Position numbers and translations under genes: made by a program. Shown in pieces: positions 1,644-49,367 of a stretch of DNA of 64,000 nt. Position 1 is the stretch's first letter; every line of letters begins with the position of its first letter. The stretch lies in the IMG/VR virus record IMGVR_UViG_3300041405_000400, one strand, 5' to 3'. The notes under the pieces were generated by a model. That model made no database searches, was not told where the DNA came from, and saw nothing but the letters and a program-made list of their open reading frames with translations. Origin of the DNA: an uncultured virus (IMG/VR IMGVR_UViG_3300041405_000400) (Duplodnaviria > Heunggongvirae > Uroviricota > Caudoviricetes).

Positions 1644-2273
1644 ATGAACGATAAGCTGAAACATTGGATCGAGTCCGGTATGCACCTTCCAAAAGTCATG
1701 CGGTCGCCAGAGAGCAGGTTGCTGGCGTCAAGCATGATATTTGAGGTCACGAAGGACATTAGTGAAAAACATCTCATCGCCCTCACTGAAGAGATGGCTT
1801 ACCGTTATATATTCGAGTGTTTTTTGCCCTTCATGGCGGAACATGGGTATGTCATCAGGCGCAGCAGGTTGGACATGCCCTTTCAGGATTTGCAAAGCGA
1901 AATGGCGGCGTTCAAGCGTCAAGACTATAGAAACTGCATGAAGCCCATGGATGGTCGGGTCGAACGCTGGCGCAAGAAATACACCTTCATGCCGTCCGAG
2001 TTCCTGGAGTTTCATGAGCAAAAAGATCTGCTAAAGGCGCTGTTCGACACCCGCGTGCCATCAATATCCGAAGCGCTCAATATCAACATCATCCAAGGCC
2101 ACTGCTACCTCTTCGATTGCTTTTTGTGGGTGCTTGCCCGGTTTGGTCTGGTGCTGCAACGGAGTCGTTCGCCGCAGGATTTTGCCGATCTTGGTGCGCT
2201 CATCAATGCAAACACAAAACGTCGCGATGATTTTTTTACAGCAATACTCATGCGCAGCGCTGAAACCAAATAA
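1644..2273 (+). CDS. hypothetical protein with an internally duplicated domain
   Basis: AAGGA RBS; two similar halves. Confidence 0.8.
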   Translation: MNDKLKHWIESGMHLPKVMRSPESRLLASSMIFEVTKDISEKHLIALTEEMAYRYIFECFLPFMAEHGYVIRRSRLDMPFQDLQSEMAAFKRQDYRNCMKPMDGRVERWRKKYTFMPSEFLEFHEQKDLLKALFDTRVPSISEALNINIIQGHCYLFDCFLWVLARFGLVLQRSRSPQDFADLGALINANTKRRDDFFTAILMRSAETK

Positions 2274-2310
2274 CCGCCGCTCCCTATTACCATCAGACGA
2301 CATTGAAGTT

Positions 2311-2658
2311 TCAGGGCTGCTTTGCAATGCGTTCAAGCACTCTGATTACCTGATTTGCCGCCGCATTCGGGCGTTTGTGCCCCGTTGCTTCATAAACACC
2401 GGACAAATGCGAGCGCATTTGCTCTTTCCACCAGTCGGCGGTTCCTGGTTCTCTGCTGCTGTTTATTTCCGGTAGCTGTTCATCAGGAGGAAGGAATGGT
2501 TGTGTCTGTCCACTGCCATTGCAGGATTTGCAGGCAATTTTTTCAGCCGAGTTAAGCTCGATCCTACTGCCATCACAGCGTTCGCATCGCCCTAGGCCGT
2601 CTTCCCAGTCTTCTAGACTGTGTGGATAGTCGGAGGGGGGTGGTATTTCTTTTTCCAT
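2311..2658 (-). CDS. small protein with DnaJ-like CxxCxG zinc-finger motifs
   Basis: CERCDG and CKSCNGSG. Confidence 0.6.
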   Translation of the reverse strand: MEKEIPPPSDYPHSLEDWEDGLGRCERCDGSRIELNSAEKIACKSCNGSGQTQPFLPPDEQLPEINSSREPGTADWWKEQMRSHLSGVYEATGHKRPNAAANQVIRVLERIAKQP

Positions 2659-10097: not shown

Positions 10098-10252
10098 GGC
10101 TATCCCGACGAGTAATTTTATAAACGTCATATTATATGCCGCCGTACGTTTTTGTCAATGCAACTTACGCAAGTCTTTTCTGTAAATGGTATTGACATTT
10201 GTGTCGCGATTAGCTATTATTAGCCAATATTCTTCCAGCCCATGGATGCCTC

Positions 10253-28572: not shown

Positions 28573-29359
28573 TAAATTTAATGGCGACCCTCAACGCCCG
28601 TTCGGACATCGTGTGAAAAAATCGACCACATCGTTGGACATTGATGTTTACCCGGTGATTCACCATCTCAATGCGGCCACTACGCTTGAACAGGCCGATA
28701 TTGCCTTTGACGCCCAGGCAGACGGCGTGTTCCTGATTTCGCATTATCGTGATGATGATGCACTGGTGCCACTGGCTCATCAGATCAAGGCGAAGTACCC
28801 GGACAAGAAGGTTGGGCTAAACTTCCTTTCCAAAGGCCCTCAGGCGGCGCTGGACGCTGTTGATATCGCGGGGCTTGACATGATGTGGGGGGACTACTGT
28901 GGCGTCACCTCCGGTGAGCCAGAAATGCTGGCGCATGATCTTGACGTTCGCAATCAGGAGATTGGCGTAAAGGACATCTTTGCCTCGGTGGCTTTCAAGT
29001 ATCAGGCTGAAGACACTGATCCTCCATTGGCTGCACGCCACGCTAAAATCTTTGGCTTTATTCCAACGACCAGCGGCGCCGGAACCGGCGAAGCGCCAAC
29101 CGTGGATAAGATCAAGGCCATGAGCGCAGCCGCTGATGGAAATCTGGCGGTGGCCAGCGGCATGACGGTGGAAAACATAGGTGATTACGCCCCCTATCTT
29201 CGCTACGTCCTGGTGGCTACTGGGGTGTCGTTGGACGACCATCACTTCGATTTTGAGCGTCTGTATCGATTCATTGCGCTGGCCAAAAACGCCAAAGCCA
29301 ATCACTTGATTACCAGTGAGTTGGTCGCGGTTGCGGCAAAGACGGATGGCGGTAAGTAA
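28559..29359 (+). CDS. BtpA/SgcQ-family TIM-barrel protein
   Basis: PVIH...ADGVFLI, GLNFL, VAFKYQ, TSGAGTG, ASGMTVENI, LVATG. Confidence 0.8.
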   Translation: MTSTDKFNGDPQRPFGHRVKKSTTSLDIDVYPVIHHLNAATTLEQADIAFDAQADGVFLISHYRDDDALVPLAHQIKAKYPDKKVGLNFLSKGPQAALDAVDIAGLDMMWGDYCGVTSGEPEMLAHDLDVRNQEIGVKDIFASVAFKYQAEDTDPPLAARHAKIFGFIPTTSGAGTGEAPTVDKIKAMSAAADGNLAVASGMTVENIGDYAPYLRYVLVATGVSLDDHHFDFERLYRFIALAKNAKANHLITSELVAVAAKTDGGK

Positions 29360-30204
29360 TGACTGTCAAAGCGAAGTTTCTTATCGACAGGTATGTCGTA
29401 GAAAATAGCTATCACGATGACCTTTATGAGCAATTGAAGCTGCTCGGATTTGAGGTTGTTTGTGATGGCTACACCTATTTCACTCAGGAGCCTGCGACCA
29501 AGCATTTTGGTGATGATGACTGCGTGGTTCTGTACGGCAGCATGAGCTTTGTGGAGCAATTTGGTCGTGGGCGTGGATTCATCCCAGGCGCCTATTACAC
29601 CAAGAGTCGCTACCTCTGCTCCCAGTACATGCACAGGCTGCCTGAAGGCATCATGGCGAACGATGATTATCTGATGCTGCCTTTTGGTGAGTTCGTCCGC
29701 CGTCACAAGTCGATTTACCAGTTGTTCAACAGCAACAAGATTTTCATTCGACCCAACTCTGGACACAAAACCTTCACCGGCCTTCCGATCCATATTGAGG
29801 AATTTACTCATGAAATCAATACATTGAGAAAGCTTCTTAATGTATCGGATGACACATTGATTTTGATCGCGTCCTGCAAGGAAATCATGGCTGAGTACCG
29901 GTTTTTCGTCGTTGGCGGAAAGGTGATTACTGGCTCCAGGTACAAGCTTGGAAATGAGCTTTCCATTGAGCCCATCATTGATGAGGCGTGCCTTGAGGTG
30001 GCTAAACGCGTTGCCGAGCATGCTTGGCAGGTGGATCTGGCCTATGCATGCGATGTTGGTATTGTGGATGGAAAACCGAAGGTCATCGAACTTAATGCAT
30101 TTTCTACATCTGGGCTCTATGCTGTTGATATTCCTAGCTTGTTTACTGCTGTCGCCGAGATTGCGGTAGCTGAATGGAATGACGAAGTTTCACTTACCGA
30201 TTAA
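29359..30204 (+). CDS. ATP-grasp domain protein (R2K/DUF4343-like)
   Basis: FIRPNSGHKTFTG, EYRFFVVGGKVITGSRY, IELNAFSTSGLY. Confidence 0.85.
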   Translation: MTVKAKFLIDRYVVENSYHDDLYEQLKLLGFEVVCDGYTYFTQEPATKHFGDDDCVVLYGSMSFVEQFGRGRGFIPGAYYTKSRYLCSQYMHRLPEGIMANDDYLMLPFGEFVRRHKSIYQLFNSNKIFIRPNSGHKTFTGLPIHIEEFTHEINTLRKLLNVSDDTLILIASCKEIMAEYRFFVVGGKVITGSRYKLGNELSIEPIIDEACLEVAKRVAEHAWQVDLAYACDVGIVDGKPKVIELNAFSTSGLYAVDIPSLFTAVAEIAVAEWNDEVSLTD

Positions 30205-31743: not shown

Positions 31744-31819
<76 letters not shown>

Positions 31820-31902
31820 GTTGATGTGTTCATTGTATATATAGAGGATTGACTAGGCAAGCATTATTTTCATGGTTTTTTGATTATTTTATTGGTGTTC
31901 AA

Positions 31903-32157
31903 TCAGCATACAAAAAACAGAATAGTGAAAATCAGGGCGCCGGTCATTTGGAAAATGGTTACTTTTCTAATTGTTCCAGGATTTTTCTGCCAATCATGGA
32001 TAAGGCCATTGAATATTGATACATGCTCTTGAAGGCTGTAGTTCTGTTTAATCACATGATACGTGACAAAAATGGCAAAAATTCTGAGAGGGATATGCAC
32101 AATGAAAATTGAACAAACAAATAAAATGGCAATATTCGACGCTAACTGAGATGTCAT
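31903..32157 (-). CDS. small membrane protein
   Basis: hydrophobic ORF with AAGGGG RBS. Confidence 0.6.
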   Translation of the reverse strand: MTSQLASNIAILFVCSIFIVHIPLRIFAIFVTYHVIKQNYSLQEHVSIFNGLIHDWQKNPGTIRKVTIFQMTGALIFTILFFVC

Positions 32158-32184
32158 TATCGCCCCTTCGAGCCTTGAAAGTGT

Positions 32185-32470
32185 TAATGCAGGGAGGTCG
32201 CAGCATCTGGTTAGCTCGTGACCCAAGGGCCAAGGGTTCCCCGATTGATCGTTGTTGCCTGATCACCGCCTCCACAGCCTTGTAGGCAAAGCTGCCGTCC
32301 ACACGTGGGGCCTTTACCTACGGCAAGTCCACGAACTGCTCTTACGCTGCATTGGGAAAGATCGAAGCACTTCAAGGGTGCCTGTCTCGCAGTTACAAGG
32401 GAAATAGCGACCCGTCCCAGGTAGTGCGTCTATCGATGTTTTCCAATGCATCCTCTTTCGAGGAAGTTGG
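32185..32470 (-). ncRNA. two stem-closed structured RNA cassettes
   Basis: AATGCAG/CTGCATT and TGCATTGG/CCAATGCA closing stems, CCTC-GAAA-GAGG hairpin, promoter at ~32494-32523. Confidence 0.55.
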
Positions 32471-32542
32471 TTTTAACTGCAAAACTTCTGTGTATTATAT
32501 GGAGTGTTAGACTATTTCTTCAATAACGAAAACATCAATCCA

Positions 32543-32746
32543 TTAAATCGAGCAGGTTTTACGCAGCAATTCTGCCGATGGTACACTTGCCCTCACCTTT
32601 TCCTCAATTTCAATATCGTACAGACGCATTCTCTCACGGCTTTCCGCAAAACGTTTGTCGATTGCCGCAGTTTCTTCCGGTGACAACTTACCTGCATTGT
32701 ATAGACGCAATTTTTCTGTAATTTCAAGCAATGCGGCGAGGGACAT
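32543..32746 (-). CDS. hypothetical protein
   Basis: AGGAAG RBS. Confidence 0.65.
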   Translation of the reverse strand: MSLAALLEITEKLRLYNAGKLSPEETAAIDKRFAESRERMRLYDIEIEEKVRASVPSAELLRKTCSI

Positions 32747-32909
32747 TATTCTTGCTTCCTGAATTTTCGTTTAAAAGTTTGATTATACTCACAAGAAATA
32801 GTGGAGAGGCATTAAACCGAGACGGGACTTTAACCCGTCGAAGTCTGTCGTCATCACAGTGCCCTTTTCGCTCGGCCACCGATCTAATGCCTTTCCAGTA
32901 CAGCCTGAA

Positions 32910-33332
32910 TTAAGAACTTTGTGTCTCTTCGATGGGTGTCCACTTTGTGGCGTCCAACTCATGGGCTTTCCACTGATCGATACTGCCATCACCAAAGATT
33001 GTCATAATAATGTAGTCACCACATTTACGGCCATCAGTAACCTGTAGCTCATCAGGGACATAATGGCTTTTGAGCTTGGCAATTCTCTGTTTATTTTCAT
33101 CAAGCAGCCAATAAAGTCCAGCATCGCAGACTTTGTAATACACACGAGCCTCAATTCCGGCTGGCCAGTTTAAAACATGACCAGAACGAAGATCGATAGT
33201 TGGCATCCAGCCATCGCCTTTCCGAAAGGGAATCTTGCCTCCGGTATCAGCAACACCGTTAATATAACCGTCTTCCCAATATCGGACGCCAGCATCTACT
33301 TCAATGAATCTAGCGCATTTGATTTTAAACAT
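32910..33332 (-). CDS. conserved phage-type hypothetical protein
   Basis: VDAGVRYWED...YKVCDAG motif. Confidence 0.75.
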   Translation of the reverse strand: MFKIKCARFIEVDAGVRYWEDGYINGVADTGGKIPFRKGDGWMPTIDLRSGHVLNWPAGIEARVYYKVCDAGLYWLLDENKQRIAKLKSHYVPDELQVTDGRKCGDYIIMTIFGDGSIDQWKAHELDATKWTPIEETQSS

Positions 33333-33529
33333 ATTCAGTCATAATCCGTGTGTAATCTTGTTGCGTTTGCCTAGTCTACACCATTTGCATTGGAGATTGG
33401 CTTTCTAAATGCTTATCTTCATTGCAAACTTCTCTGAGGTGATTGTGTGCTCTTACCTGCCGTCACGGCACTACCTTCCGTCCTCTTGACTTCTTCTGCG
33501 CCCTAAAGAGCGGAGAAGGCCATAAGGTG

Positions 33530-33814
33530 ATGTACATCAGTGATGTACACCCCGGCAACGAAGGCCTGCTGCCTGAAGCTGAGCAGATGGCGAAGCAATT
33601 CGGCACCTATGATCAATTGGCCAACAGCATTTCGATTGATCAAGCATTCGTTTGGGTCGGGACGATCCTTACAAAGGATGCAGATGCCTGCACAGAAAGC
33701 ACGCATGCCATTGATCAGTTTATCGAGAAGGAAATTAAAACCGGTAAGACGGTATCGCGTGTTGGGAAGCCTGTGATGAAGATTACCAACAAGCCGATTG
33801 CCTGCCCGGCATGA
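33530..33814 (+). CDS. hypothetical protein
   Basis: ORF; start uncertain. Confidence 0.5.
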   Translation: MYISDVHPGNEGLLPEAEQMAKQFGTYDQLANSISIDQAFVWVGTILTKDADACTESTHAIDQFIEKEIKTGKTVSRVGKPVMKITNKPIACPA

Positions 33815-33893
33815 GGCTGATTTGGCGGGGCGGCGTCCCGCCACATTGAGATCTGTGCCAGTCAACTGATTCTGTTTTCTATTCGATGCGACA

Positions 33894-33919
33894 CAAAAAG
33901 CCCGCTCGATGGCGGGCTA
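33894..33919 (-). terminator. terminator of the RNA-cassette operon
   Basis: AGCCCGC-CATCGA-GCGGGCTTTTT. Confidence 0.8.
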
Positions 33920-33940
33920 GATTGCGACAAGCGTTCAGCG

Positions 33941-34201
33941 TCACATATTGAACGCGTCCAGGGCCTCTTTACAGGTCATCTGATAGCCGAGCGAGGCCCC
34001 TTCTGAATCACCTCGCGTTGGTCCTTTGTCAGTCATGACCCAAGGTACTTTATTTTCACCCATCGTAAGCGCTAGACCGTTCTGGTCGCAGGCAATCCAT
34101 TGTGATTGAGGAGAAATCAGGTCGGCTGCGGCATACGCCAATCCACAAAGCCCAAGAGCAATGAGCGCTGCCAAGATGCGCAGCTGAATTCGTATGATCA
34201 T
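33941..34201 (-). CDS. small secreted protein
   Basis: signal peptide (…AYAA). Confidence 0.65.
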   Translation of the reverse strand: MIIRIQLRILAALIALGLCGLAYAAADLISPQSQWIACDQNGLALTMGENKVPWVMTDKGPTRGDSEGASLGYQMTCKEALDAFNM

Positions 34202-34239
34202 GTTTTCACTCGATAGATGTGTACCGGTTCTGCATTGGA

Positions 34240-34366
34240 AACCCATGTGAAGAGACTCGAACTCTCAGATCTCGGCAGTTTGTCCCGACCGTGGATCGCG
34301 CGCCTTCCCGGTTCTGAGTCCCGGTTTAGGTGCCGCCTGCGTCTACCAATTTCGCCACACATGGGT
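34240..34366 (-). ncRNA. Leu-type tRNA scaffold with an expanded central insert
   Basis: D-arm GGCGAAATTGGTAGACGC, T-arm GAGAG-TTCGAGT-CTCT, extended acceptor stem. Confidence 0.6.
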
Positions 34367-35716
34367 TTCCAATACAGCCTCCGAAGAGGATGTTTTGGGC
34401 AGGGCTGGAGGCAAATTCCAGCTTTTCAAAGTGCCTTGGCCACGGGTTACATCACGTATAGCTTAATGAAAAGCAGCCCCGTTATTATGCGACAGCCGTT
34501 GCCGATTGAACGACATTCCTGCTTTTGAATTATACAATACTTTCTTAAAAAATATTATATGCATCGGCAGAATGATTTGGTGATGGATTCGAACCATCGT
34601 CCCGGAATGCCGCGCCGTTGATCAAACGGCCCTGCCAAATCACTCTCCGATGCACTCTCGTGTGAGAATGCGGTGTAACGGGTGACACAAATGACCGGCA
34701 CTGAACTCCGGCTTTAAGGCGCCAAAGCCACCATGCCCTTTCGGGTTTGCTTCCAGGTGGCAATTAAGCACTCAGTTATCTGGGCTGCGCATCAGCCTAC
34801 GCATTCATTCGCATCGGGGTGTGATCTGGCCGGTGCTGGTCTCCGGCATTCGTGGTTATCTGGTGGCCTGCAACCTTCAGGCTCTACGAACTGGGCACAA
34901 CCCCAACGTCAGATGCGCATTACTTGGAATCATCGAACAGCTCCCGGATGTTTGTGGTTACGGGAGTGCCTGTCTGATGTGTTCCCCACGATCAAGCTTG
35001 CTTGCGTATCAGCCTACGCATTCAGATCACACCCCGATGCGCTCTCAGAGAGAGTAATCGGGCAGTTAGCGACAGGCTGTCGTGCAGTGATTCTGTGTCC
35101 GAAGGAGGTCGGACCGGCATGCAAGGCCATTACGCCATTCACCCACCTATCGGGCTCTGTCACCCCTTCATAACGCGTTCGGGGTTTTACGCGGCGATCC
35201 AGACTTACTTTTATATGGGGTTCCAGGGTCGCATCTCGCCCATTTCGTTTTGGCTTTCGCCTAATTCTTGCGGTGCATCTGAAGCTGTATTGGAATGTCG
35301 GTCCACACCATTTTCTGCAATCAACGTCCGGGTGTTCGCCACAATCCGATTGCTCTGGAGATGCTTTTTTCATGACCCGCCGACATTCCGATACAGCCTC
35401 TTTCGAGGTGATCGGGCCGTCTTTCCGGCTGTCACAGAACCAACGATTGAGCCGGTAGGTCTGAACGGCTATCCCTTTATGTGCTTGGGAGTCCAGCAGG
35501 CGGCTTGATCCCCGCTCAGGATTCTTTGTGACACTCTCGCGTGAGAGTGCTGTATTACGGTTGACGCAGATGGCCGGTACTGAACTCCGGCTTGGCGCTC
35601 TCCTGGGCGTGTTAGCGTATTTCACCTCGCAAGCGGTCTCTCACCGCCTCTTCCCTTTCGGGTTGCCCCAGCCAGTTGCGCATCAGCCTGCGCATTCATC
35701 AACGTCGGTGTTGCTA

Positions 35717-35803
35717 TGGAGCGGGTACATGGATTCGAACCATCAGCCGCTAAGCCGCCTTTATCCACTAGTAGGATTGCCCCCAATGGGCTCGGTTCCC
35801 CGC
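35717..35803 (-). ncRNA. aberrant tRNA-like RNA with CUA at the anticodon position
   Basis: GCGGG/CCCGC-T-CCA acceptor, ATGG-TTCGAAT-CCAT T-arm, ATCC-TACTAGT-GGAT arm. Confidence 0.6.
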
Positions 35804-35808
35804 AAATC

Positions 35809-35878
35809 TGGCGCCCCTACGTGGAGTTGAACCACGCGACCGACGCATGATCAGTGCGATCGTCAATCCCTCCAGGGC
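35809..35878 (-). ncRNA. D-arm-less tRNA-like RNA with a GAU loop
   Basis: GCCCT/GGGGC-G-CCA, CGTGG-TTCAACT-CCACG, CGCA-CTGATCA-TGCG. Confidence 0.6.
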
Positions 35879-36209
35879 AAATTCTAATGCAAATGGCCGG
35901 TACTGAACTCCGGCTCAGCCAATCTTTTCTATTAGGCAGTTTCAACGGCATGCCGCCTCATATACCTGTAAACCCTTTTGGCCCATCCAGTTTCTCAGTG
36001 CGCCTCAGTCGGCGCCAACATCTGCATTGGTAGGTTCACCGGCTAGGACGCATTCGGCTGGTACAAGCCTCGAAAATATTGCCCAAACGGGGGACATAAA
36101 ACCGGTCACGCCTCCCGTCCTCTGACCGGATTGGGCCGCTCTAAACGGCTTCCGGTGAACCTCCAATACAGCCTCTTTCGAGGCTAAGCCAACCAGCGGT
36201 TTCTCACGC

Positions 36210-36455
36210 TTAGTCGTGCCGATTGATCTTAAGTGTCCATTCGCGGTCGCCATCCACTGACAGCGTGACCTCATGGTCTTTCTTCAATGCCCTGACAATG
36301 ACGCTTTCTGTGGCCAGGATGGGCTCTTTATCTTCATCTTCGCCGATTTCCGCAGCCAAATACAGCTTTTCTGCTGCCACTTCCTTAACCAGCGCTTTGC
36401 GGGTCGTATAGACAGTGATCTCGTAGGCTTCGTTAACGGTTGTAAAAATCGTCAT
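36210..36455 (-). CDS. small acidic hypothetical protein
   Basis: ATG at 36455 with GGA RBS. Confidence 0.65.
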   Translation of the reverse strand: MTIFTTVNEAYEITVYTTRKALVKEVAAEKLYLAAEIGEDEDKEPILATESVIVRALKKDHEVTLSVDGDREWTLKINRHD

Positions 36456-36530
36456 CAGAGATTCCGTAATCTGTTTTGTGTGCAATAGCACAATGCATTG
36501 GGGTGAAATCTGACCGGATGTGATCCCGGC

Positions 36531-36600
36531 ATGTGTGGGTGGACTCGAACCACCGACGCGCCTTTTGCGAGGCCGCTCTACCAACTGAAGCTACACACTA
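36531..36600 (-). ncRNA. pseudo-tRNA nested in a cassette
   Basis: TAGCTTCAGTTGGTAGAGC D-arm, GGTGG-TTCGAGT-CCACC T-arm, shortened anticodon arm, no CCA. Confidence 0.6.
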
Positions 36601-36852
36601 CGCTATCTGTTCACCGGGCCTAGGAATCCCGTCACCGTCAAGCCTATTGAGTCACAAACTCACTTTCAGATTCCACCCCAATGCATCCCCAAAGGGGCAG
36701 TGGGCTTAAAATTGCATTAGTGGATGCTCCGATAACTACTTGCCATGCTTCGAATATTATCCGAATCAGGGAATTGAACCCCGGACACACCCCATTTGAT
36801 GCTTCCCTAACGCAGTTATGTTTACAAGTTCATATTCTGCTCTTGTCGGACT

Positions 36853-36881
36853 ATTTTAGCGAGGTCTCATACATGTGTCAA
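36853..36881 (-). promoter_or_regulatory. sigma70 promoter of the cassette operon
   Basis: TTGACA-17 nt-TAAAAT. Confidence 0.8.
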
Positions 36882-36926
36882 TGCTATTTTCAGATTTTTT
36901 TGAATCAAACGGCATCTGGTGTTGTA

Positions 36927-37244
36927 TTAGTGGATGGCAAACACATTACTTCGCTGGATAATCAGAATATCACCGGCTTCAAGGCCATGGTTTTCGGTAT
37001 TTTTAAGCACATTGGCGACTGAACCGAACATGTGAAGTGGATCTACCGCCAGGAGATCAACCCAGAACGCTTCACTACCTTTTTTGCCGTATTCACCCAC
37101 ACCCACTTTCACATAATCGCCAACCTCTAGCGAATGGAGTTCAGTTGCACTGGGAAGTGTTATTGTGAAGCCATGTTTGTCCGCGATTTCTTGTGCGTTA
37201 TGGAGATCTGCATGTTTTACTGAATTTGGGTCAAATGTGGTCAT
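36927..37244 (-). CDS. hypothetical protein (DUF2314-like)
   Basis: GDYVKV...EAFWV...GSVAN. Confidence 0.65.
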   Translation of the reverse strand: MTTFDPNSVKHADLHNAQEIADKHGFTITLPSATELHSLEVGDYVKVGVGEYGKKGSEAFWVDLLAVDPLHMFGSVANVLKNTENHGLEAGDILIIQRSNVFAIH

Positions 37245-37535
37245 GGTTCGCTCTAATAATGTGAGTGGTCGTTAGCGGCAAGTGGTTTGAATTTCATATA
37301 TTATCAAATTTGCGCTTCAGGCGCCTCTTTCTTGCGTCGGAAGATTTGCTTTTTTGCCTAAGTACGCACCGTATTTAATGTTGTCAACAGGGGGCTGAAG
37401 GGTGGACTTACCACTGGTCGGCAAACATGCACTAGATATTTCTGTTGCAGTGACAAGAAAATGTAAGAGCGAGACTGTTTGGCATCTGTTGCAATTATTT
37501 ATTATGACTTTCTTGAAAAGACAAAAACCATCCAC

Positions 37536-39100
37536 TGAGTCTCCCTGTGGTATATCTAGGGATTCTGAAGGTGAATCATCCGGGGTTTCAGGTGAGTGCC
37601 TGCTGTGACCGAATGCAATCCTTCTTTGACGTACCATCCGCTCTGCCGGTAGATACCGGGGCTGTGACTTACGCCACAACGCTTGCAGATTGATCTTTCC
37701 ATAGTCCGGTACGTCGCAGCACAGACTCCTGATCTGCCAGCATCTGAGCGATACTGGAGGGGCTATGGGTGTTTCCATCAGTGCAACACGCCAACAGTGC
37801 CGAATAAACGTCCCTTTGAATCAGCCCGTTGCCATCACCCAGCGCGTGCCAACGCAAGGACAGGGGTTTCTTCGTGTAGGAATCGGTGCAGTGATCGTAC
37901 TGCGACATTTTGAGCTTCCAGGTATTCAGTTCAATCATCTTGCCGCCAGCACTTTCAGCCTTGCGTTTCAGATGTTGAACAAAATAGCCCGGTGCCCTGT
38001 TTTTCACTGACTTTCCAAAAGACTTCTGAAAAGCCCGGTAGGACAATTTTTCGAGGTGCCAAATGTTGGCTTGACTGAGCAAGCGATTTACTAGTTGGCC
38101 GTGCTCATTCCGGCGTCGAGCCTGCAAAGTGCGTTCGATGTTTGCGATCCGCTGCCGCAGTGTGATCAATCGGCTTGATTGATTCGTGATACGTTGACCG
38201 CTGATCCAGAGGCCTTTCTTATCAAAGCACTGTGGATTGGTGGAACGCACGGAGCGGTCTGCCTTGCGCTGCAACCGCCGCAGAGTTTTGGCGCAAGGCA
38301 CAACGCCAGGACAAAAAGTTTGCAGTGTGGCACCTGACTCGGTGAAGCTGGCCACTGTCGAAGGTCCGATATCCAGTCCGCCGTGGGCGTTGACCGATAG
38401 ACTGGTGGGAGGGGCTTGACCTTCGAGGATCAGCTGGACGAAATAGCGAGTTTTACCCTTAATATTGCGCCATAGAACCCGCGAGAATTTCACTCGGTTT
38501 TTCAATGCATCATCGAGGAACGGGTCTTTACCCGGTGTAGGCAGAATCACAGGCATCAACAAGCCAGCCCATAGCAAGCAGGCGGTTTCGGACTGATAGC
38601 GAATGGCTGAAGCAGCACTTTTACCTTCTAGCGAATGCAGGGGTCGTTTTAGGCCTTTGAAGCGAGGTAGGCTGCGCTTCTTGTAGGAGTGCTGTTCAAG
38701 AGCAAAGAACACACGCTTCGCCAGTGTCTGCGGCTCATGAGCACCGAGGTGGTCGCGCCAAAGTCGGTTCTTAAGGCGTGTGCCAAAGGCAGAAAGGGCG
38801 TACTCAGAAAAACCGTAAGTTTCACGCAGCTGTTTATAGCCAGATCTTTTTGTCTGCACATCTTTTCTGTCGCGAAGGGTTGCCCATAGTGGATCACTAC
38901 GCATGGCAGAAAGTCTTCGGATACCCTCTGCAAGCAGGGCGTTGTAGAGCCTCTTGCCTGCCTCAAATCGCTTACGCATCACTGCCGAGTCGCGACCTTT
39001 TGTCACGAGCGGTAGCGTTATAATGAAACTGGAAGTTGAGGCTTTTTTCATCCGGTTTTACACTTTCAGCTCGACGAAGAAGAGTACAAACAAAGGCTGT
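37536..39100 (-). mobile_element. IS200/IS605-family tnpB-only (IS1341-like) element; boundaries approximate
   Basis: tnpB followed by a structured tail ending TCCCT...AGGGAGACTCA; no tnpA. Confidence 0.65.
37669..39051 (-). CDS. tnpB: RNA-guided endonuclease TnpB
   Basis: RuvC motifs GLDIGP, HLEKL and QRDVYSA; LYNALL N-terminal helix. Confidence 0.88.
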   Translation of the reverse strand: MKKASTSSFIITLPLVTKGRDSAVMRKRFEAGKRLYNALLAEGIRRLSAMRSDPLWATLRDRKDVQTKRSGYKQLRETYGFSEYALSAFGTRLKNRLWRDHLGAHEPQTLAKRVFFALEQHSYKKRSLPRFKGLKRPLHSLEGKSAASAIRYQSETACLLWAGLLMPVILPTPGKDPFLDDALKNRVKFSRVLWRNIKGKTRYFVQLILEGQAPPTSLSVNAHGGLDIGPSTVASFTESGATLQTFCPGVVPCAKTLRRLQRKADRSVRSTNPQCFDKKGLWISGQRITNQSSRLITLRQRIANIERTLQARRRNEHGQLVNRLLSQANIWHLEKLSYRAFQKSFGKSVKNRAPGYFVQHLKRKAESAGGKMIELNTWKLKMSQYDHCTDSYTKKPLSLRWHALGDGNGLIQRDVYSALLACCTDGNTHSPSSIAQMLADQESVLRRTGLWKDQSASVVA

Positions 39101-39220
39101 TACTATCTAAATTTGGCTTGATCTTAAATATAGGAAAGGAGTTGTAATAGTCAATAGTGTTTTATGTCAATTATTTTTTATGAATGAATCAGGATGCTTG
39201 TGAGGCACCTCTGTTTGCCC

Positions 39221-39297
39221 TGGAGCCGGTGACAGGAATCGAACCTGCATAACGATGATTTGCAATCATCAGCCTAGCCTTTCAGCAACACACCGGC
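39221..39297 (-). tRNA. tRNA-Cys(GCA), with 2 extra nt before the D-stem
   Basis: GATGA-TTGCAAA-TCATC, U73, CCA. Confidence 0.88.
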
Positions 39298-39539
39298 ATG
39301 CTCTTTTCAACTGATTAGGCAATCATTTAAGCCGTGCTTTTATGATTCCCACTTCAGTCTATATTCTTGAACTTATGGTTAATATTCAGAAGGGTGAGCG
39401 TCAAATCTCACCCTCCTCGCCCGTTCTCAGGCGAACAACTGGATATGTTCAGTTGCCAATCCCTTATTACAGCACAGGGTCTGCCTCCCAATATTATGGC
39501 AAACGGGAGCACCTATTCACGGAAACCATCCGCAAAAAC

Positions 39540-39616
39540 TGGCTGGCGATGCTGGGCTCGAACCAGCGACCTAATGATTAACAGTCATTTGCTACTACCA
39601 ACTGAGCTAATCGCCA
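39540..39616 (-). tRNA. tRNA-Asn(GUU)
   Basis: AATGA-CTGTTAA-TCATT, G73, CCA. Confidence 0.95.
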
Positions 39617-40131
39617 ACATAAACTCTAAAGATGTATTCGTGTAACACCGAAATTGTGGGTCTCCAATCGGCCAAGAAAAACAGTGTTACGCGAATACAG
39701 CCTTTCACCTCTGCATTCGGTCTTCTCTCAGACTGTCACGGCACTGCCTTCCGTCCTAGGGCTCCACCCACACTTCTCGCGCTTAGCCACTTCGCTTTTT
39801 AGGCTACTGAGCTGTCGGATAAAGTGCCCTCGGAGTTGACTGCAAACATAGAGTCATGTCTCTATTGGCTAACTGCAACCCATTTCTACAAGAGAACTAG
39901 GCCAGCGGAATTGAACCGCTCAGGGCTCATAGCAGGCTTTTTTCGGCTTCATGTGCGCACAATCGGCTTACTACCCCTGCTACTTTACCATTTGCATTTG
40001 AAAGTGTTCTTGTCAGAAGTCTTTCAAATGCAAACACGCATAAAATAGAACTCTATCTGCAATATAATCCAAATACGAGCCTGGATTATAATGTGTCAGA
40101 GCTTGCACCCTGACCGGAGTCAAAATGTCGG

Positions 40132-40521
40132 TCAGTCTTCTCGGACAAACCTGAAGCCTTTAACCGCTGCGAAATCTGGCACATGGTCGCCATTATAAAT
40201 CAGCTTCCACTTCTTGTTAGCCAGCTCTTCCAAATGAAACATGCGCTTATCAGTTTTAACCGCTACGGGCTTGATCATTTCGAATTCGCCCAGACCTCTT
40301 ATTGAAAATTTGCCGTTTGACAAGTCAATCGACTCAACATCAACAATGTCTTTTACATCCGATTCGTCGTTCGAGAAAAAGCATGTGTTAAAGGTCAATC
40401 GCCATGTCCCATCTGGAAGTTCATCCAAGTGAAACAAGTTTTTACGGATTTTAACTGCTGTTACACCACTCAATTCGAGTGTAATGTCAGTTCCAGCCAG
40501 CTCAATTGCCCTTCGAAACAT
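40132..40521 (-). CDS. hypothetical protein with an internal repeat
   Basis: FHLDEL...WRLTFN / FHLEEL...WKLIYN. Confidence 0.75.
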   Translation of the reverse strand: MFRRAIELAGTDITLELSGVTAVKIRKNLFHLDELPDGTWRLTFNTCFFSNDESDVKDIVDVESIDLSNGKFSIRGLGEFEMIKPVAVKTDKRMFHLEELANKKWKLIYNGDHVPDFAAVKGFRFVRED

Positions 40522-40569
40522 GCTTATCCCTTTAAAACTAGAGTGGTCATATAGACCACTCTTTTTATT

Positions 40570-40657
40570 TGGCGGAGGCGAAGAGATTCGAACTCTTGGA
40601 CCTGTTACAGTCGGCAGTTTTCAAGACTGCTGCCTTAAACCACTCGGCCACACCTCC
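40570..40657 (-). tRNA. tRNA-Ser(UGA)
   Basis: GCAGT-CTTGAAA-ACTGC, long variable arm, G73, CCA. Confidence 0.97.
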
Positions 40658-40846
40658 AAACTTTTTAGAGCTATTGACTCATCATCAAGAGTTTCTGTTT
40701 CCAGTCACTCTGGATCATAAGTCAACTACGCCTATTATTAAACCGGGCGAAGCGGTTACCTCTTGCTACCACTGGTAGCCGAGCAACAAGAGTTTGGAAT
40801 TTGCTAGCTGTTTTAGTTTCTAGCTGGTTCCGAATCCTATGTCGCT

Positions 40847-40875
40847 ATAATAATCATCTAAGCATCATGTGTCAA
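40847..40875 (-). promoter_or_regulatory. sigma70 promoter of the Ser/Asn/Cys tRNA operon
   Basis: TTGACA-17-TATTAT. Confidence 0.75.
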
Positions 40876-40892
40876 TAAGAATCTCAACTATT

Positions 40893-41774
40893 TTAATCCT
40901 TTAGAAACATTCCGCAGCTCGCTTTTACATCAAAGCCGACTTTTGGCACGATTCTCCAACTTTCTGCCTTGATCAGCGAGCGCAGGATCTCGGTATTGCG
41001 CTGAATGACCTCTTCGCACGGCTCCTTTCCATATTTTGCTGAATACGGGTTATAGCGAACGATGTTCAGGTTCACCTTCAGGTCGCGCTCGTTGATCGCA
41101 TTGGCAATGGCGACCATATCAGCTTCAGAGTCATTCTCGCCTTCGATGAATGCGAAATGAATCTTTGGCACTTTATGACTGAAATCTTGCCATGCCTTGA
41201 GCATATCGAGGCCATGTTCAGCCGTGTGCGCTCGGGCCAGCCAACGCTTACGGAACGATGGGTTCATGCTGTAGATCGAGTAATAGATCTCTGGATGCAC
41301 CTCTGGAAAAATGTCTTCCAGTCGCAAGTCACCCATCGAGGTTGGAAAAATAGACGACACCAGGAATTTGGATTCCAGGCCATAGGTTTGCGACTTCGCT
41401 GCCAGTCCATTGAGCAATTGCGCGCTGTCACTCAGCAGCAAAGGGTTGTTCAGTGGCTCCCCCCTGGCCATGAAGTTCCAGTGGATGAGCTTGGCCGGAG
41501 CTTGGGTGTCGTAATGCTCCAAGATGCGTTCGGCCTGCTGCATGAAGTCGTCCATTTCAGCATTGTCGAATTGATTCTGGCCGGTCGATGTCAGGTGGCA
41601 AAATCGGCACGCTTGATCGCAGCCAGATTGCGAGGACAGGTAGCCAATGATGTACTCAGGCACCCGACGAACGTAACGGTTTTCATAGCGACCGACATTC
41701 GGCGCAGGGTACTCAAAGTTGACCGACTGATCCTGCTGACTGAAGTGGGCTTTGAAAATGATGTTCTGGCTCAT
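40893..41774 (-). CDS. RlmN/Cfr-like radical SAM protein
   Basis: SSQSGCDQACRFC, MARGEP, GENDS, DVKASCG. Confidence 0.88.
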   Translation of the reverse strand: MSQNIIFKAHFSQQDQSVNFEYPAPNVGRYENRYVRRVPEYIIGYLSSQSGCDQACRFCHLTSTGQNQFDNAEMDDFMQQAERILEHYDTQAPAKLIHWNFMARGEPLNNPLLLSDSAQLLNGLAAKSQTYGLESKFLVSSIFPTSMGDLRLEDIFPEVHPEIYYSIYSMNPSFRKRWLARAHTAEHGLDMLKAWQDFSHKVPKIHFAFIEGENDSEADMVAIANAINERDLKVNLNIVRYNPYSAKYGKEPCEEVIQRNTEILRSLIKAESWRIVPKVGFDVKASCGMFLKD

Positions 41775-41863
41775 GCGTGCCTCGGTATATTTTGTTTGTG
41801 TGATTATAGCTTGGCTTTGAAGATTTTCAATTTTTCATTGAGTCGAGTGCCAGCGGATGAGAT

Positions 41864-42139
41864 TTAATTCAGGGCTTCTGCTGCACTCTCAATTGCATCA
41901 TTTCTCATGCGTTCAATCGAGGTAATTAGTTTTGCCTTCGTCTCTGTAAAAGGCAAATCATGATCTAGGAAATATTGAACGGCCAAACAATGTGCGAAGA
42001 TCGGTATTTGAGCATCAGTAATATCTTTTAGCCCATTTTCATCCACGGCTAATTCTTCCGGGTTCCAGAAAAAAGGCTCCCTGCCCTGCATTGCTGGCAT
42101 AAGCGGTTCCAATTTTGGAGTGAATGGAATTTTCTGCAT
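41864..42139 (-). CDS. hypothetical protein
   Basis: ORF in a minus-strand run. Confidence 0.6.
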   Translation of the reverse strand: MQKIPFTPKLEPLMPAMQGREPFFWNPEELAVDENGLKDITDAQIPIFAHCLAVQYFLDHDLPFTETKAKLITSIERMRNDAIESAAEALN

Positions 42140-42183
42140 ATTATGGGTGCTCGTTGAGTGGGTTGATTGAGATTCTTCGTCGA

Positions 42184-43149
42184 TCAGATTGAGGGCGATG
42201 AACGTTTTTGATTCAGTGATTGAGTTTGTTCGTAGCGCTTCGCAGCCTGTGGATTTACACCTAGGCTGGTCATGTCCAGGGCGTTGTGGTCAACGGCACG
42301 GTCGTGATCGATCAATTTACGCAACGCTTGAGGCACATCCACTTCTGCGGTTGGGCGATATTTCTGCTCAATGTTCTGCATGGCGGTGGCCAGGGTATCG
42401 ATCTGCGCCTGTAGATCCTTGCAGGACTTTTCAATTTCGTTGTACGGAGTAACGAATCTGTTTCGCTGATCAATGCACATACGCTCGGCATCGTCGAGTT
42501 TCTGCATATTGAAAATAGACATAAAATCGATGATCGGCTCAATGGTAAAATCCAGAACGGTGTCAATCACTGACAAGCCCAGCACATTCTTATCGCTGGT
42601 GCGCTGTTCTTTGAGGGCGTCTTGAAAGGCATTGGCGTGAGCGAACGCTCTGGAAACGTCATCTTGAGCGCTGCTGGTATCTAGGGCTGAAATAACGGAG
42701 AAGACCTTGTTGTTGGAGATCGCGTCTGTAAATTCGCTCCAATAGGCACTGTTACAAGATGCGGCAGCTTTGTCCAGATGGGCCACGGCGGTATCGCCCA
42801 GGCCTTTCAGCTCATAAAGCGGTGCAACAGCAGCCTCAAGGTTCTGGCGTTTTGCAAGCAAATCACCCCATGTCTTGCTGTCGGCTGGTTGAGCTTCGAT
42901 AAGCTCCACGACGCGCTGATCAAGCCAAAGCTGAGTCGATTCACGGGATGACTGCTCAATCGTGCTAAATCGCTCCTGAGCGGCCTTCAGTCCTTTCTCC
43001 GCAGGAGTGTCCATCACCGCATCAACGATTTGCCCCCAGAGGCCAGTCCGAGACTGTTTATCTGATACAACGCCCTGCTCTGCTTGAGCAAGGTCTGAAG
43101 CAGCCGCACTAAAAGTCTTGCTGATGGCGTGAATTGATGGGCTGCTCAT
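42184..43149 (-). CDS. helical/coiled-coil hypothetical protein
   Basis: AAGGA RBS, 321 aa. Confidence 0.8.
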   Translation of the reverse strand: MSSPSIHAISKTFSAAASDLAQAEQGVVSDKQSRTGLWGQIVDAVMDTPAEKGLKAAQERFSTIEQSSRESTQLWLDQRVVELIEAQPADSKTWGDLLAKRQNLEAAVAPLYELKGLGDTAVAHLDKAAASCNSAYWSEFTDAISNNKVFSVISALDTSSAQDDVSRAFAHANAFQDALKEQRTSDKNVLGLSVIDTVLDFTIEPIIDFMSIFNMQKLDDAERMCIDQRNRFVTPYNEIEKSCKDLQAQIDTLATAMQNIEQKYRPTAEVDVPQALRKLIDHDRAVDHNALDMTSLGVNPQAAKRYEQTQSLNQKRSSPSI

Positions 43150-43182
43150 TAATAATCCTTTAAATAAAAAAATTATATCACA

Positions 43183-43207
43183 GAAAAAAGGCCGCTTTCG
43201 CGACCTT
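43183..43207 (-). terminator. intrinsic terminator
   Basis: AGGTCGC-GAAA-GCGGCCTTTTTT. Confidence 0.8.
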
Positions 43208-43619
43208 GGGTATTACGAGCAACCGGGGATTTTCTTAGATCACTCTAAGAACCGCAATCAAGGCAGGCTCTATGCGGTTTTCTTCCGCATACTATTGAGT
43301 GTGCCATGACGCTGCCCCGCTTACCGCCACAACTGAACTTTCGCATGGGCTTGGTACTTGTTCAATCGTCACTTATCACTAACATTTCCGACAAATAACA
43401 AGTGATCACAGTTATCTGACCGTGGCCCACACCAGATTATGGTTACCTCTTTAATTTTCCTGGGATGCTGGCCCAGGCCGTCTTATCTAAACAATGCAGG
43501 GAAAAAACGGAACCCAGCCATTGTACACCGTCTTTTATGCTTCACGCTCAGATCGTATTGACGGTAGTCAGTCAACGATCCATCCCATAGCGTGAAGGTT
43601 TGCGGAATACACCGCAAAT

Positions 43620-43850
43620 TCAGATCATGACCCAGCGATACCCATCTGCAATCATGGCGTCAATTGTTGCCAGATGTTCTTCGTATTGAGCACCACCTTT
43701 GCCCTCAAAGGAATTCTCAAGAAGCCAATCACGGTAAAACTGTGTGGGGTTTCCAGAGTTGAGTGCGGCTTTCGTTACAGTGGTAGGTGTCTGAAAAACA
43801 ACATCAAAATTAACAATCTTGCCCTTTTGCAAAGCGAGATTCATGCTCAT
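43620..43850 (-). CDS. small hypothetical protein
   Basis: GAGG RBS before ATG 43850. Confidence 0.7.
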   Translation of the reverse strand: MSMNLALQKGKIVNFDVVFQTPTTVTKAALNSGNPTQFYRDWLLENSFEGKGGAQYEEHLATIDAMIADGYRWVMI

Positions 43851-44292
43851 GTTGCTACTACCTCTATAGCGTAAAATTTCGAGCGTGGCGCAGTAGACGC
43901 CTTGCTGGTCGAGTATTAGCTCAGCCAGCGCTGGATTGCAATCCCCAGAGTTCTTAACCACCATCGGCTTTATCTTTACCTTCTAAAAGCCGAAAAAACG
44001 CCAGCTTTACTTAGAAGCTGATGAAAGCGTCGATGTTCCTCATCTCAAAGGCCCCGATTTTCACAGTTCGGGGTTCTGATTTGCTGTCTACTCAGCAAAA
44101 TTCCGGATGCAGTGTTGCTGCAAACATTGACCAAAGCAGAGCCTCCCTAAAGTATCGCTATACATAAAACCGAAACTTAATGTACTTACGATGACTTTTC
44201 GGGAGGACTGCAAACTTGCCTTGCGGCGAACTCTTACTGGGTGCGAAAGTAGTACTTTCTGACCACAATAACTGGTCTTACACCTTTTAAAA

Positions 44293-44369
44293 TGGTCCGA
44301 GAGGAGGGACTTGAACCCCCGACCACCCGTTTATGAGACAGACGCTCTAACCAACTGAGCTACCCTCGG
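44293..44369 (-). tRNA. tRNA-Met/Ile2(CAU)
   Basis: TCTGT-CTCATAA-ACGGG, A73, CCA; Met versus Ile2 identity unresolved. Confidence 0.92.
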
Positions 44370-44376
44370 ACAACAC

Positions 44377-44450
44377 TGGAGCGGATAGCGGGAATCGAAC
44401 CCGCGTCATTAGCTTGGAAGGCTAAGGTTCTACCATTTAACTATATCCGC
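44377..44450 (-). tRNA. tRNA-Gly(UCC)
   Basis: TTAGC-CTTCCAA-GCTAA, U73, CCA. Confidence 0.97.
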
Positions 44451-48747: not shown

Positions 48748-49299
48748 TTAGGCTGCGGTGGACGTAATAACGCCTTTGCTAGCCGCTTGGGGTCGCGCCT
48801 CATCCGTGAGTCGAAGTTCTTCCGCCAGCTCAACCAAGTCGAGCGTCTCATAACGTGTAGGCGCTGAAACTGGGTAGGTCTGATACACGGTGTCAGTGAG
48901 CTGGTTGAACATTAGGCTGTCGGTTAGCTGGGCGACATAATCCAGAACCGTAATTGCGTCGCCTGACAGCTGATCAAATTCTTCTTTGCCCACAAAACCA
49001 ACCTCGATTCGGTGCGGCCATTGTGTGTCATCGAATGTAGAACGGAAAAGGCGATTTGACGCCATCGACCGGCGCAGCGATTCGGAATCAGGCCCATGGT
49101 GACCAAATTTCCACGCCTCTCCACTGATTGTCTGTCCATAGCGCAGGGCACTGAGCCAGTCAGCGAGATAGAACATGAAAACGATTTGCTGAGCGGACAG
49201 GGTTGGGGACTGGCTCTTGTGAAGAAGATAGGCGGTAGCCTGTTGAATCTTGGTCATAGGGTTTCCAGTGGAATATACCGGCAGTAGGTGCTGCGACAT
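48748..49299 (-). CDS. Panacea (DUF4065/SocA-like) domain protein
   Basis: MFYLADW...YGQTISG..W....HGP, L...VYQTYP. Confidence 0.75.
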   Translation of the reverse strand: MSQHLLPVYSTGNPMTKIQQATAYLLHKSQSPTLSAQQIVFMFYLADWLSALRYGQTISGEAWKFGHHGPDSESLRRSMASNRLFRSTFDDTQWPHRIEVGFVGKEEFDQLSGDAITVLDYVAQLTDSLMFNQLTDTVYQTYPVSAPTRYETLDLVELAEELRLTDEARPQAASKGVITSTAA

Positions 49300-49367
49300 C
49301 GCGACACCTATCAATATGCCGATATTATGACCATGCTAGACGCTTATGTCAATCTCAGTGACTTTGC

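Follow-up and report, generated by a model that had tools for sequence, protein, structure and literature searches.

Why should a phage keep, within its tRNA region, some 3 kb of DNA that codes for almost no protein and is laid out as a series of hairpins and closing stems? The question arises in a 64,000-nucleotide (nt) stretch of an uncultured virus of the Caudoviricetes (IMG/VR record IMGVR_UViG_3300041405_000400; hereafter the window, at its full length), in which an original prediction, made from the letters alone, had picked out a row of stem-closed units, each with a different cargo. Here we find that this ~3-kb minus-strand row (36881-33894) is nearly protein-free and holds about fifteen separately folding small RNA modules. 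Their structures are conserved and covary, their contents are exchanged between phages, and they are linked to tRNA genes. The original observation is confirmed and the region proves richer than first described, holding in addition three free-standing modules of a second kind (type B), a conserved module of ~180 nt and at least three unframed tRNA look-alikes. As the best explanation, which we hold tentatively and rate a little below an even chance, we propose that the array is a non-coding operon of stable, tRNA-mimicking small RNAs that are released by host RNases and exchanged as cassettes.

The locus supplies a searchable, covariation-backed grammar, comprising a frame, a pseudoknot cargo (type A) and a kissing-loop module (type B). 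It also offers a bridge to tractable systems, with type B present in the coliphages HK620 and mEp460 and frames present in the cultivable phages Aurca01 and PseuP_224.

A minus-strand row of folded RNA modules

The row is bracketed, as originally claimed, by a promoter and a terminator, both on the minus strand: a sigma-70-type TTGACA-17-TAAAAT at 36881..36853, which agrees with 11 of 12 consensus positions, and an intrinsic terminator at 33918..33899, with a T run after a GC-rich 7-bp stem. As a class, sites resembling promoters or terminators are no commoner in the window than in shuffles. Within 33894-36881 there are only two plausible coding sequences, again as predicted, both on the minus strand and without family match. 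One, of 82 amino acids (aa), lies at 36210..36458 and has a minimum free energy (MFE) z score of -0.2; the other, of 86 aa, lies at 33941..34201, has a signal-peptide-like N terminus and starts at an internal ATG of a 101-aa open reading frame (ORF).

All eight units listed originally (U1 to U8) exist on the minus strand. RNAfold closes the proposed stem in 8/8, and the frame pattern CCTCNNNNGAGGNTGYATYGG, with up to three mismatches, has 8 matches compared with 1.37 ± 1.05 in 100 shuffles (maximum 5); six of the eight are minus-strand units within 32443-36698. The word TGYATYGG occurs 18 times in the window, with 12 of these occurrences making up six convergent pairs within 32348-36685. Measured against 100 dinucleotide shuffles, the MFE z scores of U1 to U8 are -3.2, -5.1, -1.8, -2.9, -5.5, -4.8, -5.4 and -2.9, seven of the eight lying at -2.8 or below, compared with -0.2 to +0.5 for four coding controls. 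The RNA strand is taken to be the minus strand because the hairpin loops GAAA, UUCG and GUGA and the T-loops read properly on that strand only, and because the adjacent genes and tRNAs are oriented in the same way. The units also fall outside existing families: no Rfam 15 family matches any module, either at gathering score in the whole window or at E<=10 in the region and its sub-stretches.

The small hairpins are largely as first described, with CCUC/GAGG stems around GAAA or UUCG and CUCUC/GAGAG stems around a short loop; U1 (36493..36697, minus strand) departs from that description, carrying CCCC-UUU-GGGG in front of a 21-bp closing stem. The last unit, U8 (32348-32464, minus strand), lies beyond the terminator and follows a promoter-like TTGAAG-18-TATAAT at 32523-32494.

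The frame as a conserved and exchangeable element

Each framed unit consists of a small hairpin abutting a closing stem (P1) of 16-21 bp around a unique cargo, the stem beginning with (C)UGYAUYGG. The base of this stem, 9 bp of (C)UGYAUYGG/CCRAURCA(G), is conserved well beyond the window. The exact string CCTCGAAAGAGGNTGYATYGG is present in 64 IMG/VR stretches, mostly contigs of 40-60 kb, and in 19 genome stretches, ten of them titled Pseudomonas; among the other nine, a closed unit is established for the locus L080 only. The suspicion that similar hairpins occur in temperate phages of Pseudomonas was well founded, as the same frames are found there. The downstream closing arm was found in 69 detected units, and 31 representatives give the consensus ..CCCGAUCA-CCUCGAAAGAGG-CUGCAUCGG(A/G)GUGUGAUCUG ... 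CAGAUCACACCCCGAUGCAG-AUGAA, with hairpin loops of GAAA, UUCG, GUGA or short pyrimidine runs.

Immediately beyond the conserved base an A.C mismatch recurs, and past the 9 bp the arms diverge into 35 distinct combinations, with 21 distinct 5' 10-mers, while complementarity is kept: own partners pair at 9.23 of 10 distal positions, compared with 5.56 of 10 for non-partners. Structure rather than sequence is conserved, as had been proposed, and both the distal arms of the frames and the type A cargo covary in homologues. A strict ungapped detector finds one frame per locus in 68 loci and two in five; in the window it finds four, folding finds eight, and this is the largest array seen. The single frames lie in many temperate phages with swapped contents, in PseuP_224 downstream of cI.

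The contents change as cassettes. Among the loci L011, L006 and L003, identity is 95-100% across the hairpin and 5' arm and returns to that level at the 3' arm and beyond, but the cargos in between, of 41 to ~90 nt, are unrelated, with breakpoints exactly at the inner stem ends. Within the GGRGUGUGAUCUG arm family there are at least 12 different cargos of 80-230 nt. L011 also has in common with the window a cargo block, AAUCC.GAGCGGGGAU.AAGCCGCC, found in U3 (35430..35549, minus strand); this is the weakest of the eight units, with the hairpin (CA)CUCUC-ACGC-GAGAG(UG) and a short 6-bp GUCACA/UGUGAC stem. The evidence points to modules moving between unrelated phages as cassettes, and they are therefore selected in their own right. 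The analogy with a CRISPR array drawn in the original prediction stands in this respect, that cassettes are exchanged between constant arms; it fails in that the cargos are folded conserved RNAs, with no cas-like or reverse transcriptase (RT) partner. Neither a protein nor a recombinase or homing nuclease accompanies the framed units in neighbour-protein scans of L011 and tblastn searches of L001-L087 (the retrieved loci, which extend up to 2.5 kb around the frames). Thirteen window proteins, including a TnpB-like one, have no tblastn match in these loci, and PHROGs and Pfam searches with the neighbour proteins of L011 were uninformative.

The CCCGAU of the 3' arm is found a second time upstream of the frame hairpin, where it could pair with AUCGGG in the 5' arm; the repeat may be an alternative helix that forms earlier or an insertion scar.

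A pseudoknot cargo supported by compensatory changes

The cargo of U4 (35285..35408, minus strand; hairpin CCUC-GAAA-GAGG, 16-bp P1), here called type A, accounts for 44 of the 69 detected units, in 29 distinct sequences. Within their alignment (A1), 98.3% of cells are paired, and the covariation score of 0.153 compares with 0.070 in shuffles, of which 0/500 reach it, and with at most 0.053 when partners are slid. In 11 sequences the GGG:CCC of helix P2 is replaced by CCC:GGG. A second helix pairs a segment within P2 with one beyond it; since it crosses P2, the predicted fold is an H-type pseudoknot. Three groups of different sequence retain this second helix, with energies of -5 to -14 kcal/mol versus 0 to -4 for local alternatives, and the linkers, which are A-rich or read GCGAA/GGACG, are invariant. 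A coding reading is ruled out by the length variation (105-108 nt) together with the compensatory pairs. The compensatory changes support the reading of the type A cargo as a conserved pseudoknot RNA.

A kissing-loop module of wide distribution

Type B is represented in the window by three free-standing copies and by a fourth inside U5. In order, it comprises a closing arm of ~7 nt, AA, the hairpin UGCGCA-GGCUGA-UGCGCA, 30-150 variable nt, a second hairpin GCCGG-AGAUCAGCA-CCGGC and the 3' arm. In 90 of 119 distinct copies the arm directly after the 3' hairpin pairs at six or more of seven positions with the 5' arm, across 30 distinct 5' arms, and compensatory changes occur in the hairpin stems (GUCGG/CCGAC, GCAGG/CCUGC, GCCAG/CUGGC). 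The two loops are themselves complementary, GCUGA/UCAGC, with compensating variants GGUGA/UCACC, AGCUGA/UCAGCU and ACUGA/UCAGU; UGUG/CACA is found in U1. The 7-bp closing stem and the 5-bp stem of the 3' hairpin add up to 12 bp, as in the acceptor/T stack of tRNA, and we read this as a likeness to that stack.

On the minus strand of the window, B-a (35560..35703) follows the plan, with closing arms, AA, UGCGCA-GGCUGA-UGCGCA, a variable insert and GCCGG-AGUUCAGUA-CCGGC. B-c (35887..36027) is a variant in which the hairpins are GCGCC-GACUGA-GGCGC on the 5' side and GCCGG-AGUUCAGUA-CCGGC on the 3' side, with complementary loops ACUGA/UCAGU (36015-35896); its 5' arm overlaps the 3' arm of U2 (36022..36183; hairpin CCUC-GAAA-GAGG, ~20-bp stem, unique cargo). 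Likewise, the 5' arm of B-b (34687..34812) overlaps the 3' arm of U5 (34810..35054), which combines the hairpin CUCUC-UCU-GAGAG with a 19-bp P1 of the GGGGUGUGAUCUG arm family and encloses the nested type B copy, with inner hairpins at 35003-35020 and 34829-34847.

Elsewhere the type B 5' motif occurs in more than 120 IMG/VR contigs, in 153 phage records, the majority from lambdoid phages of Klebsiella and E. coli, and in 1037 of the 5426 complete genomes of E. coli; among the 25 matches listed, no annotated feature lies beneath it. The copy in HK620, for which Rfam offers no family at E<=10, is placed between pR'/qut and the late terminator, and that in mEp460 just downstream of the cI-like repressor. 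Positions after cI and in the pR' leader are expected to be transcribed in lambdoid lysogens. In another locus (L117) type B is followed by three tRNAs. The genome paper of HK620 reportedly mentions conserved 'boundary sequences' between modules, which might include type B.

Two side observations concern these loci. In L158 an abiF RNA motif (RF03085, 55 bits; 597-633, plus strand) lies directly 3' of the type B module, which there adjoins a candidate abortive-infection locus. In HK620 (L213) the pR'-to-terminator leader holds, at 2206-2353 (plus strand), a short frame ANEEMYLAVA-stop that resembles a tmRNA tag, and the leader gives weak Rfam tmRNA and permuted-tmRNA matches (E 0.036-0.069), far below gathering score.

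tRNA likeness and linkage to tRNA genes

What the original prediction overlooked is the tRNA-like character of many cargos and of their neighbours, and the setting of the array within the tRNA region of the phage, on the tRNA strand. Six canonical tRNA genes (Rfam; ARAGORN at default), all on the minus strand at 31744-44450, flank it, and in L017 framed units have canonical tRNA genes of the same strand on either side. The T-arm motif has 15 matches in the window compared with 7.5 expected, six of them in non-canonical elements at 32825-36780. In U6, U7, L080 and L053 a T-arm with a GTTCRANYC-type loop abuts the 3' arm of the closing stem. U6 (34560..34667, minus strand; hairpin UCUC-ACAC-GAGA, P1 of ~18 bp with one bulge) carries this T-arm, GGTTCGAATCC, at 34585-34595, together with two hairpins. 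In U7 (34230..34389, minus strand; hairpin CCUC-UUCG-GAGG), the 20-bp P1 continues the acceptor stem of a tRNA-Leu-like cargo (34241-34365) with a D-arm of class II, an extended anticodon arm and a T-arm; ARAGORN -i calls this cargo as a tRNA with a 47-nt 'intron'. In U1 a tRNA look-alike at 36528-36600 is accompanied by a type-B-like hairpin pair with the loops UGUG and CACA.

All of these are look-alikes. The RF00005 model finds nothing in 33894-36881, whether at gathering score or with E values up to 10, and ARAGORN at default calls no tRNA in the array, its calls there requiring -i or -ps80. The unframed examples, all on the minus strand, are T1 (36758..36851; z -2.3), which lies near the predicted transcription start, is called by ARAGORN at a lowered threshold only and has the T-arm GGTTCAATTCC at 36770-36780, with no match to the Rfam tRNA model; T2 (35813..35878), which ends in GCCA, is called by relaxed ARAGORN and has no Rfam match; and T3 (35721..35801), which ends in UCCA and is likewise called by relaxed ARAGORN. 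Beyond the operon and beyond the original list lies a ninth, stem-closed tRNA look-alike, T0 (32798..32901, minus strand; z -3.6), with a T-arm-like motif at 32825-32835.

In T3 the variable arm is long, the T stem has 4 bp, the anticodon position reads CUA and a CCA is encoded. A homologue adjoins tRNA-Arg in the N4-like Pseudomonas phage 98PfluR60PP (L002 ~2502-2592, minus strand). The two copies agree fully in acceptor, variable arm and T-arm and differ in their other two hairpins, which still fold; both have CUA in the anticodon position. T3 could be an unusual tRNA of the amber-suppressor type. Recoding of TAG, considered as an explanation of the CUA, was rejected: read-through adds 4% to ORF length, and 8/85 ORFs stop at TAG.

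The conserved module designated type E (35060..35241, minus strand; ~150-180 nt, MFE z 0.1) has homologues in two IMG/VR contigs, and in four of its pairs both partners have changed; in L017 it follows tRNA-Asn. Its assignment as an RNase P RNA was discarded, as the short word matches fall in a local hairpin and Rfam gives no match. A hammerhead or other ribozyme, suggested by CUGAUG/GAAA, was also rejected, as these words sit in hairpin loops, again without Rfam match.

Self-complementary UGAUCA or GAUCA is carried by a loop of U6 (~34625), by T2 (~35850) and by the type B 3' loops, and could permit loop-loop pairing between molecules. Separately, the AT-rich gap between U6 and U7 holds an extended -10-like TGTATAAT (34529-34536, minus strand), which may be an internal promoter; it has no -35 match and is for that reason unlisted by the promoter scan.

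Homologues in soil RNA libraries

Assembled contigs from four soil RNA libraries were compared with the temperate-phage homologue L011:2230-2960. One contig, of 1263 nt (977 nt in the fourth run), tracks L011 across the framed unit next to type A, and in three of the four runs it has 294 other letters in place of a 226-nt stretch containing type A. The type A unit of L011 itself has no contig cover in the four libraries, a result that is uninformative on expression. As a separate observation lying outside the main finding, very deep short contigs (summed depth up to ~2900; 88-99% likeness) fall at L011 2230-2360, over the start of a small ORF downstream of type A, and may reflect a highly expressed prophage gene or an unrelated look-alike.

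A proposed fate for the array RNAs

From these sequence features we infer that the array RNAs are transcribed, processed, stable and functional. In the mechanism that we propose, the row 36881-33894 would be transcribed as one precursor, in which each module would form a closing helix from its two ends around a variable central insert. Each would also carry a genuine T-arm adjoining the 3' arm or, in its place, two hairpins with mutually pairing loops. In the framed units the closing helix is lengthened by the 9-bp base and capped by the abutting hairpin, and the result would therefore be a tRNA-like body without a free acceptor end. Host RNases would cut at or near the helices, RNase III acting on the long stems and RNase P/Z-type enzymes and exonucleases at tRNA-like ends, to yield compact, nuclease-resistant RNAs with their ends buried in helices. 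Once released, these RNAs would probably serve in trans as tRNA mimics or protein decoys, either during infection or, for temperate phages, in the lysogen.

The first interpretation, a polycistronic precursor cut into a library of small structured RNAs, is partly supported; on it the array would be transcribed and cut into discrete RNAs, a step in which RNase III may take part. A P1 of 16-21 bp extended by a stacked hairpin falls inside the substrate size range of this enzyme, and the array helices, with their stacked hairpin of 4-5 bp, would be compatible with it in length. The design resembles the stems of rRNA operons and of T7 early RNA, in which long helices flank a structured RNA within a polycistronic (here predicted) precursor, and differs from known RNase III sites in the conserved base sequence of the frames and in their 5' capping hairpin.

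A bolder and, in our judgement, unlikely reading is that an undescribed class of 'closed tRNA mimics' is common to Pseudomonas and enterobacterial phages: interchangeable cassettes on a tRNA-like scaffold, built either from a stack of 7+5 bp with a loop-loop elbow or from a genuine T-arm, with the acceptor end sealed by the conserved frame. They would display variable RNA domains and serve in trans as decoys for tRNA-binding enzymes of the host or for tRNA-cleaving defence nucleases. The operon of the window would then be a counter-defence island made of RNA alone, corresponding at the RNA level to clusters of anti-defence genes. Were the RNAs indeed tRNA-mimicking decoys, an RNA-based layer would be added to the phage-host conflict over tRNAs.

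Several points weigh against the proposal of a processed operon of tRNA mimics. The sequence holds no readable RNase III cleavage determinant, and no conserved neighbour protein suggests a partner (13 window proteins, tblastn versus L001-L087). An N-CCA end follows only 9/90 type B copies, for which reason an encoded CCA as a general feature of type B was dropped. Type B, type E and T2 plus T3 are thermodynamically unexceptional (z 0.1 to -2.0); the covariation of type A comes from two or three clades and so from few independent events; and the recurrent A.C or C.A mismatches of P1 would become G.U on the opposite strand. The type B 5' arm shares ~4 nt with the 3' arm of the frame before it, so that both helices cannot be complete together. 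In the RNA libraries, the framed unit next to the type A of L011 is covered at a low depth of 15-40; DNA carry-over is possible, and contigs are blind to RNA ends.

Alternative explanations

The rival that survives best, to which we give a low probability, holds that the modules are cis-acting punctuation, that is, processing or stability signals between messages, whose excised RNAs have no job. It fits the temperate phages, in which single units lie between ORFs of early, immunity or late-leader transcripts (PseuP_224, mEp460, HK620), the freedom with which cargo is replaced inside conserved frames, and the position of the two small coding sequences between modules of the array. It does not fit the type A cargo, which is itself strongly conserved, with invariant unpaired blocks and a pseudoknot, nor the canonical tRNAs of the window, which have no frames; and at least eight consecutive modules with two small genes far exceed such a need.

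The array might instead be an accumulation of hitch-hiking inserts, selfish or recombination cassettes for which the frame arms are boundaries of DNA homology. The distal arms differ yet stay complementary, with G.U tolerated on one strand only, which argues for selection on RNA pairing and not on DNA homology; the hairpins bear GNRA or UNCG loops, and no recombinase or homing nuclease accompanies the units in the loci scanned. These points make the idea more doubtful than punctuation, even though it would explain why breakpoints fall exactly at the inner arm ends, why the CCCGAU of the 3' arm recurs upstream of the hairpin, why near-identical modules occur in unrelated phages and why an RNA-library contig swaps a 226-nt type A stretch for 294 other letters.

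Lower again we place a decaying tRNA cluster, in which the T-arm elements would be phage tRNA pseudogenes and the stems chance or relic. Six canonical tRNAs do lie nearby, ARAGORN needs lowered thresholds or an artificial intron, and the Rfam tRNA model is silent at E up to 10; decay is quite improbable all the same, given that the acceptor, variable arm and T-arm of T3 are preserved at 95.7% identity in an N4-like phage that is unrelated, while its remaining arms differ yet fold, that the frames and types A and B are conserved across tens to hundreds of contigs, and that the z scores are strongly negative. That the array is a library of guides or scaffolds for an RNA-guided protein, such as the distant TnpB-family ORF (37669-39051) ~0.8 kb upstream, or of RT templates as in UG27 prophages, which carry arrays of structurally conserved, sequence-diverse non-coding RNAs (preprint 10.64898/2026.09.22.753630), is far-fetched, since the TnpB-like protein and 12 other window proteins have no tblastn match in L001-L087, Pfam finds no RT domain in 85 window ORFs, the array is under its own promoter and the cargos are folded, unlike guides.

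Comparison with known systems

Small stable RNAs of phage tRNA clusters have been known since the 1970s, and RNAC and RNAD of the virulent phage T4 (species 1 and 2) are encoded among tRNA genes, co-transcribed and processed from a precursor. By analogy these, together with the small RNAs of the T5 tRNA region, appear closest in kind to the array, which like RNAC and RNAD is non-coding and lies beside phage tRNA genes on the same strand (as also in L017 and L117). The likeness is one of description only: here there are about fifteen modules instead of two, the frame sequence is conserved, and the modules also occur in temperate phages away from tRNA genes. RNAC and RNAD are described as small RNAs 'of yet unknown functions' (PMC9697503).

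In architecture, the closest are the YrlA Y RNAs, some of them carried by phages, in which the two ends pair into a stem that is attached to a tRNA-like domain lacking a free CCA end (PMC4201824). The modular design, the end-stem with a tRNA-like domain and the lack of a free CCA end are common to both, but the three defining features of YrlA that we looked for are all missing from the array. The end-stem of YrlA replaces the anticodon stem (PMC4201824), whereas in U6, U7 and L080 it continues the acceptor stem beside the T-arm; the motif GNCGAAN0-1G near the YrlA 5' end (PMC4201824) has as its nearest string in the frame CUCGAAAG, with C at a required G; and there is no TROVE/Ro60 domain in the 85 window ORFs and no Rfam match.

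UG27 arrays are alike in that they vary and in that their non-coding RNAs are similar in structure and diverse in sequence; they adjoin an RT and two accessory genes and template cDNA (10.64898/2026.09.22.753630), whereas the window has no RT. The crAss-like phage phi14:2 is described as producing long early intergenic non-coding RNAs that exceed most mRNAs in abundance, persist late and are of unknown function (preprint 10.1101/2020.03.07.982082); it belongs to another phage group, and no common sequence or defined modules are reported for it there. As in CRISPR, constant elements alternate with variable inserts that are exchanged between relatives, but the constant part is an inverted pair of arms for each insert and not a direct repeat, the inserts are folded conserved RNAs, and no cas family is present among the ORFs scanned. 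The omega-RNA of TnpB, which overlaps the 3' end of tnpB or comes right after it and travels with the gene, differs as well, in that the array starts ~0.8 kb downstream of the tnpB-like gene under its own promoter and that the protein is not found beside frames elsewhere (tblastn, L001-L087). Neither the frame nor type A nor type B turned up in searches of openly readable main texts by topic and by motif string.

The phage and its gene surroundings

The source is a large uncultured virulent-type phage. The window codes for rIIA (7785-10130, minus strand), rIIB (6476-7753, minus strand), SSB and a dCTP deaminase-like protein, and many of its ORFs have no family match in scans of 85 ORFs with Pfam and related libraries, in which no RT, TROVE or cas family was found. 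Its rIIA is less than 33% identical to the rIIA of any phage in a collection of 50,697 records. The host would be Pseudomonas-like, a suggestion that comes solely from the RNA modules common to Pseudomonas phages: matches at 92-96% identity occur in Aurca01, PseuP_224 and 98PfluR60PP. With two flanking proteins as queries, five loci were found in relatives, and these hold no arrayed frames, no T-arms and no tRNAs.

The 460-aa ORF at 37669-39051 (minus strand), ~0.8 kb upstream of the array, is a distant relative of TnpB, matching NCBIfam NF040570 (E 1.6e-17, below cut-off) and PHROG 506 'transposase' (E 8e-31), with no Pfam match and no PDB sequence match. Accessory genes of the window encode a SocA/Panacea antitoxin-domain protein (48748-49314, minus strand), an R2K-type ATP-grasp protein (29359-30204, plus strand) and a radical-SAM/Fe-S protein (40893-41774, minus strand).

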